Shown piece after piece: positions 200 to 7,976 of a stretch of 16,117 bases of DNA (position 1 is its first letter; each line of letters starts with the position of its first letter). The notes beneath the pieces were generated by a model that saw nothing but the letters and a program-made list of their open reading frames with translations, was not told where the DNA came from and did no database searches. Position numbers and translations under genes: made by a program. Source of the stretch: Armatimonadia bacterium (lineage in GTDB: Bacteria; Armatimonadota; Zipacnadia; Zipacnadales; UBA11051). The stretch is from NCBI GenBank assembly GCA_039683575.1, contig JBDKRC010000259.1:1-16117 (forward strand), written 5' to 3'.

Positions 200-1663
200 T
201 TACAGCGCGGGGCGCTGTTTGTGCCATTCGGTGGACTGCTCGTAGGCGTAGGCCACCTTGAGCAGTGTCGGCTCGTCGAAGAAGCGGCCCATTAGCTGCA
301 TACCAATGGGCAGGCCCTGCGAGAAGCCGCAGGGGACATTCATCGCGGGGATGCCCGCGAGGTTGATCGGCAGCGTGCAGATATCGGCGAGCTTCATGGC
401 CAGCGGGTCGTCGGCCTTTTCGCCGATCTTGAAGGCGACGGTCGGTGAGGTGGGGCAGACGAGGAAGTCATACTTCTCGTAGGCGCGCTCGAAGTCCCGC
501 TTGATGAGCGTGCGGACCTGCAGGGCCTTCTTGTAGTAGGCGTCGTAATACCCGGCGCTCAGGACGTAAGTGCCCTTGATGATGCGCAGGCGCACCTCGG
601 GGCCGAAGCCCTCGGCCCGACTCTGGGAGAACATGTCATAGATATCGGTGGTTTCCTCGCTGGTGCGGTGGCCATAGCGGACGCCGTCGTAGCGTGCGAG
701 GTTGCTGGAGCACTCCGCCGGAGCGATGATGTAGTAGCATGGGAGGCTGTATTCAGCGTTGGGGAGGCTGACTTCCTCACAGGTGACGCCGAGGGCCTCG
801 AACTGCTTGATAGCAGCCTCGACAGCGGCGCGGACGTCGGGCTCGATGCCCTCGCCGTAGAGCAGCTCGTGGACGATACCGGCCTTGAGGCCCTTGACGT
901 CCTGGCCGAGGTTGGCGGTGTAATCAGGCACGGGCAACGCGGCGGAGGTCGAGTCCAGCGGGTCCTGCCCGGAGATGACCCCGAGAAGCAGCGCGCAGTC
1001 CCGCACGTCCTTGGCCAGCGGGCCGACCTGATCGAGCGAGGAGGCGTAGGCGACGACGCCATAGCGGGAGACGCGGCCATAGGTGGGCTTCATGCCGACA
1101 AGGTTGCACAGCGAGGCGGGCTGGCGGATGCTGCCGCCGGTATCGGAGCCGAGGGCCCAGTAGGCCTCCCCAGCGGCCACGGCAGCGGCGGAACCACCAC
1201 TTGAGCCACCGGGAACGCATTCGAGGTTCCACGGGTTGGCCGTGACCTGGAAAGCGGAGTTTTCGGTGGAAGAGCCCATGGCGAACTCGTCCATGTTGGA
1301 CTTGCCGACCATGGGCAAGCCGGCCTCTTCACAGCGCTGGACGACGCTGGCGGTGTAGGGCGGGACGAAGTTGTCGAGCATCTTGGCGCCGCAGGTCGTG
1401 CGGACGCCGGTGGTGCAGAGCAGGTCCTTGTGGGCGATGGGAACGCCAGCCAGCGGGGAGACGGCCTCGCCCCTGGCGCGCTTTTCGTCCACGGCGGCGG
1501 CCTGCTGCTCGGCGACCTCGCGGGTCAGGGTCAGATAGGCCTTGACCTGTCCCTCAACGGCCTCGACACGGTCAAAAGAAGCCGCCACGGCCTCAGCGGC
1601 AGAGACTTCGCGGCTCTGCAGCTTCTCGGCCAGTTGCCATGCGGTCAGTTCATGCAATTGCAC
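200..1663 (-). CDS. gatA: Asp/Glu-tRNA amidotransferase subunit A
   Basis: Amidase signature (AHKD, GKSNMDEFAMGSSTENS, PGGSSGGSAAAVAA, GSDTGGSIRQPA), SSNLARYDGVRYG and VLSAGYYDAYY. Start moved to GTG at 1663 behind an AAGGAG RBS. Confidence 0.97.
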   Translation of the reverse strand: MQLHELTAWQLAEKLQSREVSAAEAVAASFDRVEAVEGQVKAYLTLTREVAEQQAAAVDEKRARGEAVSPLAGVPIAHKDLLCTTGVRTTCGAKMLDNFVPPYTASVVQRCEEAGLPMVGKSNMDEFAMGSSTENSAFQVTANPWNLECVPGGSSGGSAAAVAAGEAYWALGSDTGGSIRQPASLCNLVGMKPTYGRVSRYGVVAYASSLDQVGPLAKDVRDCALLLGVISGQDPLDSTSAALPVPDYTANLGQDVKGLKAGIVHELLYGEGIEPDVRAAVEAAIKQFEALGVTCEEVSLPNAEYSLPCYYIIAPAECSSNLARYDGVRYGHRTSEETTDIYDMFSQSRAEGFGPEVRLRIIKGTYVLSAGYYDAYYKKALQVRTLIKRDFERAYEKYDFLVCPTSPTVAFKIGEKADDPLAMKLADICTLPINLAGIPAMNVPCGFSQGLPIGMQLMGRFFDEPTLLKVAYAYEQSTEWHKQRPAL

Positions 1664-1695
1664 GGGAACAATCTCCTTCGGGCGACGACGGTCCA

Positions 1696-1799
1696 ACTGT
1701 AGGGCGGGGGCTCCGTACCCCGCCGCTCGGGTAGTCGTAGATAACGGCGCGGCGGGGTACGGAGCCCCCTGCGACGCAAACGTCGCTACGCCCTACAGT
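1696..1799 (-). repeat. REPIN-like element copy 1 (inverted pair of GTAG-type REPs plus conserved spacer), with a 20-nt insert at 1770-1789
   Basis: ACTGTAGGGCGGGGGCTCCGTACCCCGCC ... GGCGGGGTACGGAGCCCCC[insert]GCCCTACAGT; the spacer is approximately the reverse complement of that in copies 2 and 3. Confidence 0.9.
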
Positions 1800-1815
1800 C
1801 CGAGGCGGATGCGAC

Positions 1816-2115
1816 CTACTCTTCAGTCTCCATGAATAGCGACGTGCGGAAGAAGCCATCCACTGCGTCGGGGGCGTTGGCGACAACGTCCTCCACCGGC
1901 AGTGACTCCCACGTCGTATCGGCGCGGTAGATGTTCTTCATCGGCACGGCATGCGAGGTAACCGGCACGTCTTTGGTGTCGAGTTCCTGCAATTCCTGGA
2001 AATGTGTCATGATGCGGTTGAGCTCGCCGCCAACGCGCTCGATTTCCTCTTCAGAAAGAGCCAGGCGCGCTAGTTTGGCGACATGACGGATGTCATCTTT
2101 GGTGACTTCGGGCAT
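1816..2115 (-). CDS. gatC: Asp/Glu-tRNA amidotransferase subunit C
   Basis: MPEVTKDDIRHVAKLARLAL...LQELDT...VANAP...FF; 99 aa; GGAGG RBS (2124-2128); directly upstream of gatA. Confidence 0.95.
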   Translation of the reverse strand: MPEVTKDDIRHVAKLARLALSEEEIERVGGELNRIMTHFQELQELDTKDVPVTSHAVPMKNIYRADTTWESLPVEDVVANAPDAVDGFFRTSLFMETEE

Positions 2116-2154
2116 AAACGACGCCTCCGGGTGGTGCGACACGGGGATACAGGC

Positions 2155-2183
2155 AGTTTAGCAGACGGTATCGGGGGCGTCAA
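2155..2183 (-). promoter_or_regulatory. sigma70-type promoter for gatCA
   Basis: Minus strand TTGACG-17 bp-TAAACT, 40 nt upstream of the gatC start. Confidence 0.7.
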
Positions 2184-2227
2184 CATGAGGGCGGGGGGGT
2201 GTACACGTGTGGGCGCAGGGAAGCGCT

Positions 2228-2314
2228 CAAAATGGGGACGGAGCCTTGACGCCGACGTTTCGTTGGTGGAACTGACCGAGCCTCAGTCGGCGTCAAGGCT
2301 CCGTCCCCATTTTG
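2228..2314. repeat. Perfect 29-bp inverted repeat with 29-bp spacer (MITE/REPIN-like)
   Basis: CAAAATGGGGACGGAGCCTTGACGCCGAC (2228-2256) is the exact reverse complement of 2286-2314. Confidence 0.85.
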
Positions 2315-2400
2315 GCCGATCAGTTTGCGTCTGACGGAAGACAGGAGAAGCGGCCAGTGAGGGCGAAACCATCCGCATCCTCACCCACGGGAGTATCCGT

Positions 2401-3210
2401 ATGGCGTTGGCGACTTTCATGTTGATCGCGGACTTGCACATGACCGGCTTTGAGATCAAGGACGGGCTGGTGTGCCCAAGGCTGCCTGCGCACGCCTGGT
2501 GGGCCGTGGATCGGCGCTATGACATCATGGGCTACCTGCTGCCGATTGCGCTCCAGCAGGCGCAGGCGGACTTTCAGCCCGGCTTCGTCATGTTCGGCGG
2601 CGATATGGTAGACGACGGCTTCGGTAAGTACGGGCGCGGCGACCTGACAATGGTGCGCGACCTGGCGACCAAGCACTGCACGAGCAAGCCGTGTTTCCTG
2701 TATGGCAACCATGACGGGCCACAGGCGCAGTTCGAAGAGCTGTTTGGGCCGCTGAACTATACCTTCGACCAGGGTAACCTGCGTTTCATCGTCCTCAACA
2801 CGGGGACGATGGACTGGGAGAAGGAGGAGGCAAGCTCGCGGGCGGCGATAGCGCACCTGCAGGAGAGCCTGCGCACGGCGGAGGGGCGGAAGGTTATCGT
2901 GATTGCCCACCAGTGGCTATACCCGACGGACGTGGAGGGCTACAGCATGGCGCACGCGGACGAGGCGTTGGCGGCGTTGGAAGCCTATTCAGGCACTGTA
3001 GCGGTCCTGAACGGCCATTATCACACGGGGAAGTACCAGGAGAAGAACGGGATACACTACCTGACGGCCAAGGCGTTCTGCGAGAAGCCATTTGCGTACT
3101 ACCAGTACCAGATCACCGCTGATGAGCTGGTCTGCACGGAGTACACGCTCAAGCCGTCGCAGCAGAAGTTCGTCCCGGGCGTGGAGCAGCGTCTGAAGCT
3201 GAGGAAGTAG
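2401..3210 (+). CDS. Calcineurin-like metallophosphoesterase
   Basis: Motifs DLH, GGD, GNHD, AH and GHYH in canonical order; GGGAG RBS upstream. Confidence 0.9.
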   Translation: MALATFMLIADLHMTGFEIKDGLVCPRLPAHAWWAVDRRYDIMGYLLPIALQQAQADFQPGFVMFGGDMVDDGFGKYGRGDLTMVRDLATKHCTSKPCFLYGNHDGPQAQFEELFGPLNYTFDQGNLRFIVLNTGTMDWEKEEASSRAAIAHLQESLRTAEGRKVIVIAHQWLYPTDVEGYSMAHADEALAALEAYSGTVAVLNGHYHTGKYQEKNGIHYLTAKAFCEKPFAYYQYQITADELVCTEYTLKPSQQKFVPGVEQRLKLRK

Positions 3211-3213
3211 GGG

Positions 3214-3249
3214 AAAAGCAAAACGCCCCTTCGGTTGAAGGGGCGTCTT
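3214..3249 (-). terminator. Intrinsic terminator for the tRNA, possibly bidirectional
   Basis: Stem ACGCCCCTTC (3223-3232) / GAAGGGGCGT (3237-3246); on the minus strand it is followed by a T-rich tract; lies between the convergent CDS and tRNA. Confidence 0.8.
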
Positions 3250-3259
3250 AGCAATACTG

Positions 3260-3335
3260 TGGTGGACGGGAAGGGATTCGAACCCTCGACCTCCTCCGTG
3301 CGAGGGAGGCGCTCTCCCAGCTGAGCTACCCGCCC
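3260..3335 (-). tRNA. tRNA-Ala(CGC), 76 nt, CCA encoded
   Basis: GGGCGGG TA GCTC AGCTGGGA GAGC G CCTCC CT-CGC-AC GGAGG AGGTC GAGGG TTCGAAT CCCTT CCCGTCC A CCA; G3:U70 alanine identity pair and A73. Confidence 0.97.
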
Positions 3336-3347
3336 GTGGGGATCAGC

Positions 3348-3376
3348 ATTATAGCGCGTGAATAAGGGCATGTCAA
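3348..3376 (-). promoter_or_regulatory. Perfect consensus sigma70 promoter for tRNA-Ala
   Basis: Minus strand TTGACA (3376-3371), 17 bp, TATAAT (3353-3348), 12 nt upstream of the tRNA 5' end. Confidence 0.9.
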
Positions 3377-3466
3377 ACGTTGTCAGGGCCATTATTCGCA
3401 TGGCAGGTGAGGCCGCCAGGCCCGTCGAAAGGCACCGCTGCACACCATCATTAGGGAGTGGATATC

Positions 3467-4441
3467 ATGTCTATTCGTATTGGCTTCATCGGCACCGGCG
3501 GCATTGCGCAGGGCCATATGAAGCGTCTGTCGGAGATGCCGGAAGTTGAGATGGCGGGTTACTTTGACGTTGCCGCCGACCGGGCGCAAAAAGCGGCCGA
3601 TGACTTTGGCGGGAAGGCCTACAAAAGCGCGGTTGAGCTTCTGGACAGCGGTCTGAACGGCGTGGTCATTTGCACGCCGCCCTTTGCTCACGGTCCGGCC
3701 GAACTGGCCGCCTGCGAGCGGAAGATCAACATGCTGCTCGAAAAGCCCGTGGCGATCACCGTGGACATGGCCAAGCCGATCCTCGAGGCCATCAAGAGCA
3801 GCGGGATCGCGACCGTGGTGGGCTACAAGTACCGCTGGGACGACCATGTGATCCGCGCCAAGCAGATGCTGGCCGGCAAGAAGATCGGGCTGGTGTTCGG
3901 CAATTTCTGGGGCGGGACCCCGGGAGCGCCGTGGTGGCGCGTGCAGGCACAGTCCGGCGGGCAGTTCGTCGAGCAGACGACTCATATCGTTGACATGGCG
4001 CGGTACCTGTGCGGCGAGGTGACGGGGGTGTCGGCGCTGGAGACGCGGCTGTTCATGCACGAGGCTCTGGAGAACTATGACATCGCGGACGCCGCGGCGG
4101 CCAATCTGGTGTTTGAGAACGGCGCCATCGGCAACATCAGCAACACCTCGATGGTCACGGGCTGGGGCCAGAGCAGCCTGCGCGTGATGGCGCACGAGTT
4201 CACGCTGCAGATCGCCGGGCACAGCCTGACCTGGGCCGGAAAGGACGGCACGGGCGAGTATGCCATGCAGGCCGATGGCTACACCGGTGAGGACAAGGCG
4301 TTCGTGAAGGCCTGTCAGGGCGACAGGTCGGAAGTGTACGCCGACTACGAAGAGGGCCTGAAGTCGCTGGCGGTGTCTGAGGCAGTGGCCAAGTCGGCGG
4401 CGGAAGGCTCGTGTCTGGTGAAACTGGCGGAGTTGCTGTAG
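3467..4441 (+). CDS. Gfo/Idh/MocA family NAD(P)-dependent oxidoreductase
   Basis: IGFIGTGGIA Rossmann motif, ICTP, LEKP, SGGQFVEQTTHIVD; ATG at 3467 chosen for the GGAG RBS 8 nt upstream. Confidence 0.92.
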   Translation: MSIRIGFIGTGGIAQGHMKRLSEMPEVEMAGYFDVAADRAQKAADDFGGKAYKSAVELLDSGLNGVVICTPPFAHGPAELAACERKINMLLEKPVAITVDMAKPILEAIKSSGIATVVGYKYRWDDHVIRAKQMLAGKKIGLVFGNFWGGTPGAPWWRVQAQSGGQFVEQTTHIVDMARYLCGEVTGVSALETRLFMHEALENYDIADAAAANLVFENGAIGNISNTSMVTGWGQSSLRVMAHEFTLQIAGHSLTWAGKDGTGEYAMQADGYTGEDKAFVKACQGDRSEVYADYEEGLKSLAVSEAVAKSAAEGSCLVKLAELL

Positions 4442-4457
4442 GGCCGGAGTCGTGTCG

Positions 4458-4563
4458 GGCTGTAGGGCGGGGGCTCCGTACCCCGCCTGCCGTTATCTAC
4501 GACCTTCCCGAGCAGCGGAGCGGTGTCTGCACCGCAGGGGTACGGAGCCCCCGCCCTACAGCC
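4458..4563 (+). repeat. REPIN-like element copy 2, with a 20-nt insert at 4517-4536
   Basis: GGCTGTAGGGCGGGGGCTCCGTACCCCGCC-TGCCGTTATCTACGACCTTCCCGAGC-AGC[insert]GGGGTACGGAGCCCCCGCCCTACAGCC. Confidence 0.9.
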
Positions 4564-4572
4564 GGAGGCGCC

Positions 4573-4601
4573 TTGCCAGAATCGTCTCCGGCTGGCATAA
4601 T
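4573..4601 (+). promoter_or_regulatory. sigma70-type promoter for the deacetylase/isomerase genes
   Basis: TTGCCA-17 bp-CATAAT. Confidence 0.65.
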
Positions 4602-4681
4602 TGAACCACACGCTGCTACAGATCATGGCAGCCGGCTGTTGATGGCCGGCTGCCATGTCTTATCTCCGTAAGGAGGCTCAC

Positions 4682-5521
4682 GTGCCCCTCTTTGCTGACG
4701 CGCGCGCGGTCGTGGCCATCGGCTGGGACGGCGAGATGATCGGCGAATACGCCGATACGAACTCCACCGGCAAAACCCACGGCCACCTGGATGATCGCAC
4801 TATCCGGTATGCGATGGATGTCGCCGAGATGGCCGAGCAGGCTGACTTCCGGATGCAATACTTCCTGCTCGGGCAGAGCTTTGAGCAGCCTATGGACTGG
4901 GCGGCGGAACTTCTGAGCCGGGGGCATGCGCTTGATCAGCATACTTACAGCCATCTTCCGCTGATCGGCGAGGAAGTCGAGGTAGCGCGGGAGCTCACGG
5001 AGACTTCGCGGCTGTTTGAGGAGAAGTTGGGGTTTCGTCCAGTGGGGCTGCGGGGGCCCGGCGGGTATGCACATGGGCTGCATGACCACCCGCGGGCACA
5101 GGAGATCGTCAAGGAGCAGGGGCTGCAGTTTGTCAGTTGCCATTACGCCACAAAGACCCCCAGCGGCCCTTACGACGTCTATGCAGACAAGAATGCGTAT
5201 CAGATAATCAAGCACCACCAGCCGCGCCGGTACCCCAATGGGCTGCTTGAAATCCCGATTTCGGGGTATACCGACCGGCACTTTCTGGACAATCTGGCGC
5301 GCCCGGTGGAGCGGTTTACGAAGCACTTGCAGGACTGCCTCGATTTCGCGTACGATATGGGGGGGCTGGTATACGCGGTGGCGCTGCACCCGGACACGAT
5401 GTCGCGGCATGACCCGCAGATGCAGGCGCTGGCGGGGCTGATTGAGCACGCGCAGCGGAAGATGGATAAGGTGCGATTTGTGACGTACCGGGAGGTGGCG
5501 GAGGCGGCGCTGGCTGGCTAA
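4682..5521 (+). CDS. Polysaccharide deacetylase (CE4/NodB-like) family protein
   Basis: IGWDGE (DxE variant of motif 1), HTYSH metal motif, GLRGPG, LEIP, LHP; start moved to GTG at 4682 behind AAGGAGG. Confidence 0.8.
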   Translation: MPLFADARAVVAIGWDGEMIGEYADTNSTGKTHGHLDDRTIRYAMDVAEMAEQADFRMQYFLLGQSFEQPMDWAAELLSRGHALDQHTYSHLPLIGEEVEVARELTETSRLFEEKLGFRPVGLRGPGGYAHGLHDHPRAQEIVKEQGLQFVSCHYATKTPSGPYDVYADKNAYQIIKHHQPRRYPNGLLEIPISGYTDRHFLDNLARPVERFTKHLQDCLDFAYDMGGLVYAVALHPDTMSRHDPQMQALAGLIEHAQRKMDKVRFVTYREVAEAALAG

Positions 5522-5558
5522 GATTCAGGCGTTCCTATGATGTGGAGAGGGCTGCACG

Positions 5559-6236
5559 ATGAAACGTTCCCAAATCAACCAAATCATTCGCGAGGGCATC
5601 GCCTTCTGCGAGCAGATGAACTTCAAATTGCCGCCATTCGGCTATTGGAAGGCCGACCAGTGGCAGGGGCGCGGGGCGGAGTGGGATGAGATCCGCGACA
5701 ACATGCTCGGCTGGGATTGTACCGATTTCGGCTCCAATGACTATGCCAACGTCGGACTGCTGCTCTTCACGATCCGCAATGGCAACCTGAAGCTCACCGA
5801 GAAGTACGAGAAGCCGTACTGCGAAAAGCTGATGATCATCGGCGAAGACCAGTATTGCCCGTGCCATTACCACTTCAACAAGATGGAAGACATCATCAAC
5901 CGCGGGGGCGGGAACCTGCTGCTCAAGCTGTGGTGGAAGGACGATCAGGAGGGCCTGAGCGACAAGCCGGTCCAGGTCTCCATAGACGGGCACCGCGTCG
6001 AGGTGGAAGCCGGCAGCGTGGTGCGGCTGACGCCGGGGGAGAGCATCACCCTGCCTTCGTACCTGTACCACACCTTCTGGGCCGAGCAGGGCCAGGGGCA
6101 GGTGCTCTCAGGCGAGGTCTCGAAGGTTAACGATGATGTAACCGATAACCGCTTCCTGGAGGAGCTTCCGCGGTTTTCGGCGATTGAGGAAGACGAGGCG
6201 GCGGAGCATTTGCTGTGTAACGAGTATCCGCGGTAG
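5559..6236 (+). CDS. D-lyxose/D-mannose ketol-isomerase family cupin protein
   Basis: MKRSQIN..., LPPF, LGWDCTDFG, GLLLFTIRNG, YCEK, PCHYHFNKMEDIINRGGG, LTPGESITL, GEVSKVNDDVTDNRF; all characteristic of this family. Confidence 0.9.
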   Translation: MKRSQINQIIREGIAFCEQMNFKLPPFGYWKADQWQGRGAEWDEIRDNMLGWDCTDFGSNDYANVGLLLFTIRNGNLKLTEKYEKPYCEKLMIIGEDQYCPCHYHFNKMEDIINRGGGNLLLKLWWKDDQEGLSDKPVQVSIDGHRVEVEAGSVVRLTPGESITLPSYLYHTFWAEQGQGQVLSGEVSKVNDDVTDNRFLEELPRFSAIEEDEAAEHLLCNEYPR

Positions 6237-6245
6237 GGAGCGGGC

Positions 6246-6377
6246 TCGGGCTGTAGGGCGGGGCTTGGCGATGTCCGCATCGCAACTCGTACCCCGCCTG
6301 CCGTTATCTACGACCTTCCCGAGCGGCGGAGCGGTGTCTGCACCGCAGGGGTACGGAGCCCCCGCCCTACAGCCCGA
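6246..6377 (+). repeat. REPIN-like element copy 3, with two 20-nt inserts (6265-6284, 6328-6347)
   Basis: TCGGGCTGTAGGGCGGGGC[insert]ACTCGTACCCCGCC, same spacer as copy 2, then GGC[insert]GGGGTACGGAGCCCCCGCCCTACAGCCCGA. Confidence 0.9.
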
Positions 6378-6445
6378 AACGCTACAGCCGGAACCGCTTG
6401 AATATATGAACATCACACACACTCGTATCCCACTTCTACGCAAAG

Positions 6446-6572
6446 GTTGTCACCAGGGCGGCTCTAGTCAGCCCGGGGAAAGCCCGGGCGTGACAGCCGA
6501 GGCTGGCGTCTGCCAGCCTCCCGGAGGGGCCGAGCTTTAGCCGGCCCAGTAGAGCCAACCTGAAAGGACAAC
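6446..6572 (+). ncRNA. Candidate structured cis-regulatory leader RNA (four-way junction), family unassigned
   Basis: Four helices can be drawn by complementarity and the basal helix brackets the RBS of the aminotransferase; structure read by eye only. Confidence 0.55.
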
Positions 6573-6578
6573 ACCAAA

Positions 6579-7736
6579 ATGCATCTGGCAAACCGCATGC
6601 AGCGTCTCGGCACCGAGACCGCTTTTGAAGTACTCGCACGGGCTAAGCAGCTTGAGCGCGAGGGCAAGAACATCGTTCACCTCGAGATCGGCCAGCCCGA
6701 CTTCGACACCCCCAAGTTCATCAAGGACGCGGCCTGCAAGGCTCTCGACGAGGGCGTAACGGGCTATGGCCCCTCGGCCGGCGATCCGGACCTGCGCGAG
6801 GCAGTGGCCGAGCACATCAGCACCAGCCGCGGCTTCCCCGTGAGCCCGAACGAAGTCGTGATCGTGCCGGGCGCCAAGCCCATCATCTACTGGGGCATCA
6901 CGGCCTGCGTGGACGAGGGCGACGAAGTTATCTACCCCAACCCCGGCTTCCCGATCTACGAGTCCATGATCAACTTCGTCGGCGCCAAGCCCGTGCCGAT
7001 CGCGCTGCGCCAGAAGAACGACTTCCGCCTCGACCCGCAGGAACTGATCTCGCTGGTTACCCCCAAGACCCGCATGATCATCATCAACTCGCCCCAGAAC
7101 CCCACTGGTGGCGTGCTGGAGATGGAAGACCTCGAGGCCATCGCTGAAGTCGCCATCAAGAACGACATCATCGTCATGAGCGACGAGCCATACGAGTCGG
7201 TTCTCTACGAGGGCAAGCACTACAGCATCGCGGCGCTGCCCGGCATGAAAGAGCGGACCATCCTGCTCGACTGCTTCAGCAAGAGCCACGCGATGACCGG
7301 CTGGCGGCTGGGCTACGGCGTTTGCCCGGTGGAAGTGGCTGACGCCATCGCCAAGCTGGAGACCAACTGCGTATCCTGCACCACCGTCTTCGTGCAGAAG
7401 GCCGGAATCGCCGCTCTCAAGGGCCCCATGGACGAGTCCCGCGCGATGGTGGCTGAGTTCAAGCGCCGCCGCGACGTGATCGTGGATGGCCTGAACCAGA
7501 TCAAGGGCTTCAGCTGCCTCAAGCCCAAGGGCGCGTTCTACGTGTTCCCCGACATCACCGGCACCGGCATCGACTCGCGGACGCTCGCCAAGAAGATCCT
7601 CGAAGAGGCCGGCGTGGCCGTGCTGTCCGGAACGGCGTTTGGGGAATATGGTGACGGTCACCTGCGTCTGTCATATGCGAACTCCGTGGAGAACATCCAG
7701 GAAGCGCTGAAGCGGATCGGGAACCTGCTGAACTAG
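6579..7736 (+). CDS. PLP-dependent aminotransferase class I/II (AspC-like, subgroup Ib)
   Basis: LEIGQPDFDTP, NSPQNPTG, SDEPY, FSKSHAMTGWRLGY (PLP lysine), GAFY, LRLSYA; AAAGGA RBS. Confidence 0.93.
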   Translation: MHLANRMQRLGTETAFEVLARAKQLEREGKNIVHLEIGQPDFDTPKFIKDAACKALDEGVTGYGPSAGDPDLREAVAEHISTSRGFPVSPNEVVIVPGAKPIIYWGITACVDEGDEVIYPNPGFPIYESMINFVGAKPVPIALRQKNDFRLDPQELISLVTPKTRMIIINSPQNPTGGVLEMEDLEAIAEVAIKNDIIVMSDEPYESVLYEGKHYSIAALPGMKERTILLDCFSKSHAMTGWRLGYGVCPVEVADAIAKLETNCVSCTTVFVQKAGIAALKGPMDESRAMVAEFKRRRDVIVDGLNQIKGFSCLKPKGAFYVFPDITGTGIDSRTLAKKILEEAGVAVLSGTAFGEYGDGHLRLSYANSVENIQEALKRIGNLLN

Positions 7737-7742
7737 ATCGTC

Positions 7743-7790
7743 GCTGTAGGGCGGCGCGACGGCTGCGTCGCAGGGGGCTCGTATCCCGCC
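7743..7790 (+). repeat. Single family-1 REP (copy 4), with a 20-nt insert at 7753-7772
   Basis: GCTGTAGGGC[GGCGCGACGGCTGCGTCGCA]GGGGGCTCGTATCCCGCC. Confidence 0.8.
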
Positions 7791-7797
7791 GCCTCAA

Positions 7798-7897
7798 CGC
7801 GTAGGTGGGTTTGTCCCCAAACCCACATCTTGCCGGTGGTGTCGGTTCGAGACGAACCGACCTACGCGGTTCATGGGCGAGACGCCCGACCTACGCG
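7798..7897. repeat. Cluster of three family-2 GTAG REPs
   Basis: GTAGGTGGGTTTGTCCCCAAACCCAC (+, 7801-7826); GTAGGTCGGTTCGTCTCGAACCGAC (-, 7841-7865); GTAGGTCGGGCGTCTCGCCCA (-, 7874-7894); each preceded by CGC. Confidence 0.8.
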
Positions 7898-7976
7898 GTG
7901 ACTGTTTCGGTTTTGGGTATAATGGGAGGGGCCGACGGCGGCCCCTCTCGCTTCAAATGCTCAGGGGGCGTGCGGC

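Follow-up and report, generated by a model that had tools for sequence, protein, structure and literature searches.

A 20-nucleotide hairpin cassette nested within repetitive extragenic palindromes of an Armatimonadia bacterium

Can a single hairpin of about 20 nucleotides behave as a mobile piece of DNA? This question is raised by a 16,117-nt stretch of an Armatimonadia bacterium (contig JBDKRC010000259.1, assembly GCA_039683575.1; hereafter the window), in which five short hairpin segments lie inside GTAG-headed repetitive extragenic palindromes (REPs). The window is contig C259 of a metagenome-assembled genome (MAG) of 6.23 Mb in 352 contigs with 63.5% G+C (96% complete, 2% estimated contamination), labeled G000. 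An earlier note, made from the window alone, proposed that the segments are copies of a non-autonomous element that targets REPs. The results described below show that the 20-nt unit, termed the cassette, is inserted into REPs that were already present. Its position there is constant, with GC on its 5' side and GGG on its 3' side, two or three bases from the start of the 5' stem arm; a related sub-type of cassette enters REP loops. Furthermore, one resident REP doublet forming hairpins (REPIN) exists with and without the cassette at a single chromosomal locus in two related lineages. It is tentatively proposed, as a reading that may well prove either right or wrong, that the unit is a discrete, non-coding, non-autonomous cassette of GTAG-type REPs that is moved in trans by a HUH Y1 enzyme.

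Cassette copies in the window and in the source genome

The window contains four host loci, all between open reading frames, and the host head CTGTAGGGC occurs in it eight times compared with 0.10 expected. The host family is referred to as REP1, and the insertion classes are A (in REP1 after GTAGGGC), B (in the REP1 loop), C (in the mirrored REP1 3' arm) and D (in a second host, REP2). The features of the four loci are as follows.

1699-1724, plus strand: empty REP1 unit (26-nt form), left arm of REPIN 1
1725-1750, no strand: spacer of REPIN 1, 26 nt
1751-1796, minus strand: REP1 unit, right arm of REPIN 1, with a hairpin cassette at site A (after GTAGGGC)
1770-1789, minus strand: 20-nt class A cassette, stem GCGACG/CGTCGC, loop TTTG; missing in the orthologous REPIN of a related strain
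4462-4487, plus strand: empty REP1 unit, left arm of REPIN 2
4514-4559, minus strand: REP1 unit, right arm of REPIN 2, with a class C cassette in the 3' arm
4517-4536, plus strand: 20-nt class C cassette, stem GCGGTG/CACCGC, loop TCTG, between AGC and GGGG on the plus strand
6253-6298, plus strand: REP1 unit, left arm of REPIN 3, with a class B cassette in the loop
6264-6284, plus strand: 21-nt class B loop insert, C followed by TTG, stem GCGATG/CATCGC, loop TCCG
6325-6370, minus strand: REP1 unit, right arm of REPIN 3, with a class C cassette
6328-6347, plus strand: 20-nt class C cassette, same sequence as 4517-4536
7746-7790, plus strand: lone REP1 unit with a class A cassette
7753-7772, plus strand: 20-nt class A cassette, leading GGC, stem GCGACG/CGTCGC, loop GCTG

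The five hairpins were found exactly where the earlier note had placed them (that of the loop insert occupies 6265-6284). The pattern GCGRYGNNNNCRYCGCA matches exactly five places in the window, compared with a mean of 0.03 in 200 dinucleotide-preserving shuffles, none of which (0/200) reaches five. Each 20-mer forms a hairpin of six base pairs and a four-base loop (single-stranded DNA, -6.5 to -7.8 kcal/mol; z -2.1 to -3.9), and in the single-strand fold of a whole REPIN the cassette is a side branch off the long REPIN hairpin. The general plan of the cassette is three variable bases, a GC-rich 6-bp stem, a TCYG loop and a terminal A. An Rfam search of the elements returned no family reaching its gathering score.

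The distribution of the cassette was probed across G000 by pattern search. A scan for REP1 with GTAGGGCGGGGGCTC(C)GTACCCCGCC, allowing ≤3 mismatches and ≤1 insertion, gave 434 hits, 223 of them without an insertion. Site A holds 46 insertions of 20 nt (42 at offset 7, three at offset 8 and one at offset 6), the loop holds 15 insertions, all of 21 nt and all after GTAGGGCGGGG, and the 3' arm holds a handful of 20-21-nt insertions. The remaining hits, judged by eye, are mostly spurious, being ordinary units with a GTAG or a truncated REP head just upstream, and one insert copy is internally deleted to 16 nt. Overall, 223 empty REP1 units compare with about 66 filled ones. The earlier note described all inserts as 20 nt long, which holds for four of the five in the window; the loop insert is a C plus the 20-mer, as are all 15 loop copies in the genome. 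At site A and in the loop, the constancy of length that the earlier note anticipated extends across the genome, the rest being the one truncated copy and the REP-head artefacts.

REP2 was defined by one of the heads GTAGGTGCGC, GTGTGGAGCGC, GTTTGGAGCGC or CCGGGAGCGC followed by GGGCATCC(C/T)TGCCCGC. Its 90 exact 3' cores consist of 73 empty and 17 filled copies, the cassette lying between GCGC and GGGCA. When copies are counted strictly, as matches to GCGRYGTCYGCRYCGCA, G000 contains 73, with 31 at REP1 site A, 11 at loop site B, five at mirrored site C, 20 in REP2 and six elsewhere (four at site A with mutated heads, one in the loop of a further host, REP4, and one resembling a chance match). 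Within REPs lie 72 of these 73 strict copies, and none of the 73 is a free-standing cassette. The total number of cassette copies in G000 is about 95, in a genome with more than ten GTAG-headed repeat families.

The possibility that these copies are an artefact of MAG assembly or binning is scarcely credible. The MAG is divided among 352 contigs with the contamination given above, and short-read assemblers break at repeats, but the approximately 95 copies lie inside contigs in consistent contexts. Furthermore, related cassettes are present in separately assembled genomes, namely G002 and G003 (same genus as G000) and G018 (same order, other family), and the empty allele described below comes from an independent metagenome contig.

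Insertion sites, occupied and empty

The cassette is always inserted after GC, and sites A, C and D share the sequence GC^GGG. Sites A and C are the same GGC^GGGG on opposite strands, three bases into the REP1 stem, and stand opposite each other on one rung of that stem, 3 nt from its base; the orientation of the cassette is equal at both. The REP2 site is GCGC^GGGC, 2 nt from the stem base, and cassette orientation is fixed to that sequence as well. The junctions are exact, with one ambiguous G, and there is no target duplication. The three insertion positions, the preceding GC and the lack of a duplication are as the earlier note described them. Its further statement that all inserts have the same orientation relative to the host holds in part, as orientation is fixed relative to the GC^GGG strand, but the inserts assigned to the right REP are inverted relative to the GTAG head of that REP. 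Insertion 3' of a short specific sequence, in one orientation and without target duplication, is the pattern of IS200/IS605-type elements. Inserts located in loops, namely those of class B, the one in REP4 and those in G018, begin with TTG or TTT instead of G-N-A, and may be a sub-type of the cassette.

An orthologous empty site was identified by searching metagenome contigs with a 20-letter unique flank, which returned a single contig, L219. This contig matches the window at 91% identity along 1309 nt and at 88.5% along another 887 nt, and it carries the same REPIN at the orthologous place. All 82 shared bases of the REPIN are identical, and positions 1770-1789 are missing as one clean gap of 20 columns. 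Intergenic orthologues in the same-genus sequences G002, G003, G004 and L023 contain other repeats or no REP1 at the window loci. Among the rows listed for Logan contigs of four metagenome runs over positions 1600-7900, no 20-nt gap was seen, these contigs being short and breaking at REPs. One further contig (X4; record 23, 1751-2191, 21 gaps) resembles the empty 1770-1789 allele; its left side extends for just 19 nt, and it was not counted.

The pairs of empty and filled sites that the earlier note called for exist among paralogous copies as well. The filled copies of REP2 belong to at least six sub-families defined by head and loop, each of which also includes empty copies (23 empty and 3 filled, 14 and 3, and 5 and 3, for example). 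A larger repeat of about 180 nt containing a REP2 unit is present in seven copies of two flank lineages, filled in one of three and two of four copies, respectively. Among 60 convergent REPIN pairs, 34 are empty in both arms, 15 have a class A insert in one arm, seven a class B insert, three a class C insert, and one has B and C together. The last is REPIN 3 of the window, the only one of the 60 with inserts in both arms, and no REPIN (0/60) carries the same insert in both. The spacer variant is individual to every REPIN, all insert classes occur with both the 25-nt and the 33-nt spacer class, and classes A and B are found on either REPIN arm. Presence and absence at otherwise identical sites, the evidence used to judge mobility in small dispersed repeats (SDRs), is thus provided by L219 and by the paralogous copies.

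Comparison with relatives suggests which state is older. REP1 pattern matches number 191 in G000, 21 in G002 (20 of them without an insert), 30 in G003 and 72 in G018. REP1 units from the G018 pattern searches carry no cassette; just two matches have 6-30 inner bases, and both of these are a neighboring REP head. Because REP1 occurs empty in G002, G003 and G018, the empty unit looks to be the ancestral state. Strict hairpins, 73 in G000, number zero to one in each of the three same-genus genomes and nine in G018. In a phylum sample of 401 genomes, 35 have at least one strict match, and only G000 and G018 have more than three. The junction 23-mer of classes A and D, sought in species-representative genomes, gave just two unrelated matches beyond G000.

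Site A of REP1 is used by a different cassette in the sister species. This cassette is 22 nt long, GTA-GAGAYCGC-NN-GCGRTCTC-A, with 15 copies in G002, two in G003 and none in G000, and it has its own compensated C-G and T-A stem variants plus one wobble intermediate. A relative of it in G000, GAGACC-GTCTGC-GGTCTC, sits in a third host, REP3 (GGAGGGGCCG...CGGCCC). The nine hairpins in G018 have the 17-mer of the cassette and all lie in the loop of an unrelated GTAG-REP, GTAGGGGCGCGT...ACACACGCCC.

These comparisons bear on the possibility that the hairpin is an original part of a compound REP and that the empty forms arose by repeated precise deletion, which is very improbable and largely refuted. 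The host REP in G018 always contains an inner hairpin (the shortest segment is 11 nt among the matches listed), and the polarity of the L219 pair is unrooted, as would be compatible with loss. However, the cassette occupies three REP1 sites in two orientations relative to the head, in addition to REP2 and REP4, and empty copies outnumber filled ones in both REP1 and REP2. The REP1 matches in G018 lack the cassette, and those in G002 and G003 are nearly all empty. Additionally, there are no flanking direct repeats that would give exact 20-nt deletions. The earlier note's proposal of a non-autonomous element that targets REPs is consequently supported. It had set out three contrary outcomes beforehand, and what was found in their place is a constant insert length, matching empty and filled sites, and a hairpin that is not a fixed part of a longer repeat, REP1 in the sister species being mostly empty or holding another hairpin.

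Proposed mechanism of movement and competing explanations

The sequence anatomy of the cassette has been examined in 83 flank-defined 20-mers (41 distinct), a set that includes two class D rows representing a REP2 head and not cassettes. Of 498 stem cells, 481 are Watson-Crick pairs, six are G-T and 11 are mismatched. In the 41 distinct 20-mers, 229 of 246 cells are Watson-Crick compared with 198.2 ± 2.6 when partners are shuffled, and the observed count is reached in 0/1000 shuffles. Variation is confined to stem pairs 4 (A-T 76, G-C 4) and 5 (C-G 58, T-A 18, A-T 2), with further compensated stems, GCGAAG/CTTCGC and GCGGCG/CGCCGC, in REP2. The compensatory changes reported by the earlier note are therefore real; they are, though, few, restricted to these two pairs and found mostly between insertion classes. 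Template-switch correction of quasi-palindromes can also yield covariation in DNA palindromes, and the covariation is consequently no proof of selection on structure. Class A has a distinctive start, with 30 of 46 copies reading GTAG, then a 5-bp perfect palindrome, then CA (GTAG + CGACG-TCTG-CGTCG + CA). At its foot, position 2 is T in 65% of the 46 copies, while positions 1, 3 and 4 (G, A, G) are conserved at 96-100%.

The tentatively favored mechanism is a single-strand "peel and paste" reaction that would be carried out in trans by a HUH Y1 enzyme, either a REP-associated tyrosine transposase (RAYT, or TnpA-REP) or an IS200/IS605-type TnpA. Such an enzyme might read the folded hairpin together with the G-N-A-G bases 5' of it, much as group-3 TnpA-REP proteins recognize small perfect palindromes with the aid of GTAG. 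Once inserted, some copies were probably carried further by the spread of the REP or REPIN that hosts them, and the cassette would in effect be a mini-REP parasitizing REPs. HUH single-strand chemistry is favored because the target is short and fixed, orientation is fixed, there is no duplication, the cassette depends on a hairpin and the empty site is clean.

Several observations weigh against this proposal. The orthologous pair involving L219 is the single one found, and gain versus precise loss is not rooted by the same-genus genomes because they hold other repeats there. Although seven homologues of Y1_Tnp (PF01797) score above the cut-off in G000 (contigs C168, C51, C331, C237, C102, C31 and C338), none of the seven loci is flanked by the cassette, REP1 or REP2, so that the motif-flanked RAYT or IS200-like TnpA gene that the earlier note proposed to look for was not found there; in a fragmented, 96%-complete MAG such a locus could be missed. 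Similarly, no REPtron-like gene was found between inverted REP1 units (three candidate pairs, whose first residues were inspected, none of them nuclease-like). According to the available part of Corneloup 2021 (PMC8266576), group-3 TnpA-REP proteins act on perfect palindromes of 5-8 bp with a GTAG guide, and their cleavage sites on the two sides are CT or CA. The left junction of the cassette is C|G and the right one A|G; if shifted by 1 nt, they read G|T and G|G. Neither pair agrees with these dinucleotides, and one hairpin fills the whole cassette, compared with the two subterminal hairpins of IS200/IS605 elements. GTAG is not kept outside class A, as classes C and D mostly have GAAG or GGAG and class B has TTGG. 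The stem variants are mostly class-specific (AC/GT in A and D, AT/AT in B, GT/AC in C), as would be expected if a small number of founding insertions had then multiplied along with their hosts. Finally, no strand bias of the cassette beyond that of its hosts was found. When the GC skew of MAG contigs is used as a stand-in for the direction of replication, the strand that is locally C-rich carries 53 of 74 cassettes (p = 0.0003), matching the empty-host bias (23/35 for class A compared with 87/142 for empty REP1, and 18/21 for class D compared with 41/48 for empty REP2). As a separate observation, the GTAG strand of other hosts in G000 is likewise on the C-rich strand, in 61/73 REP3 and 76/92 REP4 copies, alongside the 41/48 REP2 and 87/142 empty REP1 copies.

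The class-specific stems lead to the main rival, which is somewhat unlikely on the evidence as a whole. It states that a few founding insertions were followed by copy-choice, template switching or ectopic conversion between REP arms, together with co-amplification, with no dedicated transposition of the 20-mer. In addition to the stem variants and the lack of a cassette-specific strand bias, this explanation is favored by the 82 identical shared bases of the L219 REPIN amid 91% identity over 1309 nt. REP arms are identical while spacers and flanking genes diverge, and therefore homogenization of, or strong constraint on, the arms is indicated. Many REP2 copies are in tandem clusters in which conversion is easy, and half-hairpin junctions at TCTGC microhomology and one fold-back palindrome show that template-switch-type rearrangement occurs here. 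Nevertheless, the rival still requires at least five independent, precise insertions of the same orientation in G000 (A, B, C, D and REP4) and, in G002 and G003, the separate colonization of this REP1 site by a different cassette. Even if conversion accounts for the later copies, some process of site-specific insertion is thus needed. Moreover, homology 5' of site A is just 7-9 nt, the filled arm in the window retains the rarer CTCCGTA loop 12 nt from the insert when 41 of 47 class A donors have CTCGTA, and, as stated above, no REPIN has the same insert in both arms.

A second alternative to movement by a HUH enzyme is a non-HUH enzyme that has so far gone unrecognized, either a structure-specific nuclease or recombinase that cuts the REP stem at a fixed distance and ligates the hairpin, or an enzyme of templated synthesis. 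This alternative, which is improbable, would account for the position of sites A and C on one REP1 rung 3 nt from the base and of the REP2 site 2 nt from the base, for junction dinucleotides outside the TnpA-REP rules, and for the absence of a Y1 gene linked to the cassette. On the other hand, no candidate gene was found (DUF559 was not detected in the 96%-complete G000), and nothing positively separates it from the HUH model.

One Y1_Tnp gene merits separate description. The RAYT-like gene at L106 (G000:C237:50838-54167, open reading frame at locus positions 1462-2100) has inverted copies of ...AATGGGGACGGAGCCTTTGCGCG on both sides, and is likely the REPtron of another repeat family. Filled REP2 and REP1 units are located 1 kb upstream of this locus.

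A longer element bounded by hairpin halves, of which the cassette would be a footprint or a miniature inverted-repeat transposable element (MITE) remnant, was also considered and rejected, as the hairpin is closed at 46 of the real left junctions and at 41 of 43 right ones. Junctions with an open hairpin are truncations abutting another REP. In these, the cassette is reduced to its left half, which stops at the loop (TCYG) and is joined directly to a further REP unit that has its customary 5' flank, at the following G000 loci.

C172, 7364: left-half junction
C127, 8340, minus strand: left-half junction
C331, 7549, minus strand: left-half junction
C180, 26753: left-half junction
C154, 10163, minus strand: left-half junction

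The REP1 5' flank is often CTCTGCT, and TCTGC is common to this flank and the cassette center. One left-half locus is a fold-back palindrome of a REP1 head plus left half. The half-hairpin junctions look like microhomology or template-switch rearrangements.

Relation to known repeats and to other REP families

Very small nested mobile repeats and REP-like hairpins are already known kinds of element, and the cassette is a variant of them. The SDRs of Nostocaceae, reportedly described by Elhai and colleagues, are said to be very small, nested mobile repeats. Like these, the cassette is about 20 nt long, non-coding, dispersed and nested in other repeats or short palindromes (20-21 nt in REP1, REP2 and REP4), with mobility inferred from filled and empty sites and the enzyme named in neither case. 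The two differ in that the cassette is found in Armatimonadota, its host is the stem or loop of a GTAG-type REP and not HIP1 or another SDR, and there are no stand-alone copies; this comparison is one of descriptions and not of sequences. The available part of PMC5861425 reports SDR5 nested in HIP1 and, among HIP1-rich cyanobacteria, no SDR-like repeat outside Nostocaceae. SDRs are also treated in a citing paper, PMC2884548, as far as its available part goes.

Similarities to the REP/REPIN and RAYT system are evident in both host and guest. As in the available parts of the descriptions of that system (Bertels & Rainey 2011, PMC3116915; PMC3733652; PMC8266576), the hosts are GTAG palindromes that often form REPINs (the 60 convergent pairs), and the class A cassette has the anatomy of a minimal REP, with GTAG, a 5-bp perfect palindrome and CA. 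As a stem-loop of about 95 copies, the cassette has the size, structure and copy number expected of a REP, but the nesting of 72 of its 73 strict copies in another REP is unlike free-standing extragenic dispersal. REPs are described as 20-40 bp in the part of Di Nocera 2013 (PMC3733652) that is available. The cassette, compared with the REPs of these excerpts, is shorter, always nested in another REP, not next to a Y1 gene, and degenerate in its GTAG in classes B, C and D. According to the excerpt of PMC3733652, GTAG REPs are also regularly enclosed by other small palindromes in Anabaena variabilis, Thermomicrobium roseum and Halothiobacillus neapolitanus, and these target palindromes do not occur free. 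In those cases the REP is nested in an unrelated palindrome, whereas in G000 the REP is the host and a smaller hairpin the guest. In G000, too, many hosts are empty, and one site is documented as empty in an orthologous copy.

Insertion sequences offer two further comparisons. Like the IS200/IS605 elements of the "peel and paste" account (available part of PMC8266576), the cassette is hairpin-dependent and is placed 3' of a short specific sequence in a fixed orientation without duplication, and the clean gap at the orthologous site could be accounted for by precise excision. In contrast to these elements, it has one hairpin and not two subterminal ones, a length of 20 nt and not hundreds, and no cognate TnpA that has been found; its target is a dinucleotide plus structure and not a tetra- or pentanucleotide, and it has no strand bias beyond that of its hosts. 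IS1397, ISPpu9 and others target REPs (Tobes & Pareja 2006, as cited in the available part of PMC3733652). They share with the cassette the use of REP hairpins as specific landing sites, but are kilobase-sized, autonomous and supplied with their own transposase. A literature search found no work joining repetitive extragenic palindromes with Armatimonadota, and among the matches listed for RAYT/REPIN, REP stem-loops and non-autonomous elements there was no title on REP-nested hairpins. What is unusual in the present system is that the host is itself a REP, that one site is used by different cassettes in sister species, and that an orthologous empty site documents the movement of 20 nt. The cassette is one of the smallest mobile pieces of DNA seen in bacteria.

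A broader reading, which is doubtful, holds that REP and REPIN populations host parasites of their own, namely single-hairpin cassettes of 20-22 nt that would be the smallest transposable units and would be cut and pasted by a HUH enzyme. The apical G-TCYG-C would serve as the handle for the enzyme, and the co-varying lower stem and the 5' bases would set cassette identity or the choice of target. If true, this reading would explain why different cassettes occur at the same REP1 site across Armatimonadia species, why a single REP family in G018 has dozens of alternative inner hairpins, and why the inner stem of REP3 is hypervariable yet mostly complementary. If a lone 20-nt hairpin can be placed with precision in a particular DNA structure, the minimum size of mobile DNA would have to be set lower, and the REPIN/RAYT picture would gain a level, that of repeats living on repeats. 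REP1 with and without the cassette provides a concrete substrate for studying the function of orphan Y1 HUH proteins in uncultured bacteria, and a minimal hairpin-plus-target rule for scar-free single-strand insertion is of possible practical interest. For annotation, there is a warning that REP families in little-studied phyla are modular, with swappable inner hairpins, and that classification from sequence alone splits one host family.

Other repeat families of these genomes display inner hairpins of their own. The G018 GTAG-REP introduced above has 89 copies by pattern search (for example, L011-L019). Its inner hairpins, about 18-25 nt long, come in dozens of versions that have a conserved G-TCYG-C center and co-varying complementary stems. 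A non-palindromic form, GCGGAGC-NNN-GCGGAGC, is common, and no empty form was seen among the matches listed. REP3 (GGAGGGGCC...GGCCC) has 242 pattern matches in G000, including 6520-6548 and 7924-7945 in the window. The inner segment has 3 nt in 20 copies and 11 nt in 116, and there is a long form of 25-29 nt, which combines a conserved loop, CAGCCTCACCG, with an inner stem that is hypervariable. When 36 REP3 copies were strictly parsed, 14 different left arms were present and 27 of the 36 had exactly complementary arms, the stem being more variable than the loop. Another G000 repeat, GTCATCCTGAGC...GCGAAGGATC (13 copies; C143, C27, C331), has the central hairpin CGGACG-TCYG-CGTCCG, with a G-TCYG-C apex like that of the cassette.

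Hairpins fitting a degenerate form of the 20-mer are more widely scattered. A scan of 185,579 species genomes gave at least 82 matches in at least 80 loci of high-GC genomes, with at least 24 perfect hairpins, and none of the 24 inspected lies in a REP. One contig of an Actinomycetes MAG (L171, locus positions 5818-5909) has three matches spaced 36 nt apart, a tandem or CRISPR-like array without REP context.

The window contains a few further features. A tRNA gene is located at 3263-3335 on the minus strand (Rfam RF00005, 66.9 bits). A long hairpin of about 98 nt at 2223-2320 gives sub-threshold matches to plant microRNA precursors (44 bits against a gathering score of 100) and probably represents a further palindromic repeat, not a gene for an RNA. 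The filled REP1 unit at 7746-7790 is directly followed, at 7797-7900, by a cluster of three GTAGGT-headed hairpin REPs of other families, copies of which are present in G002 and G003.

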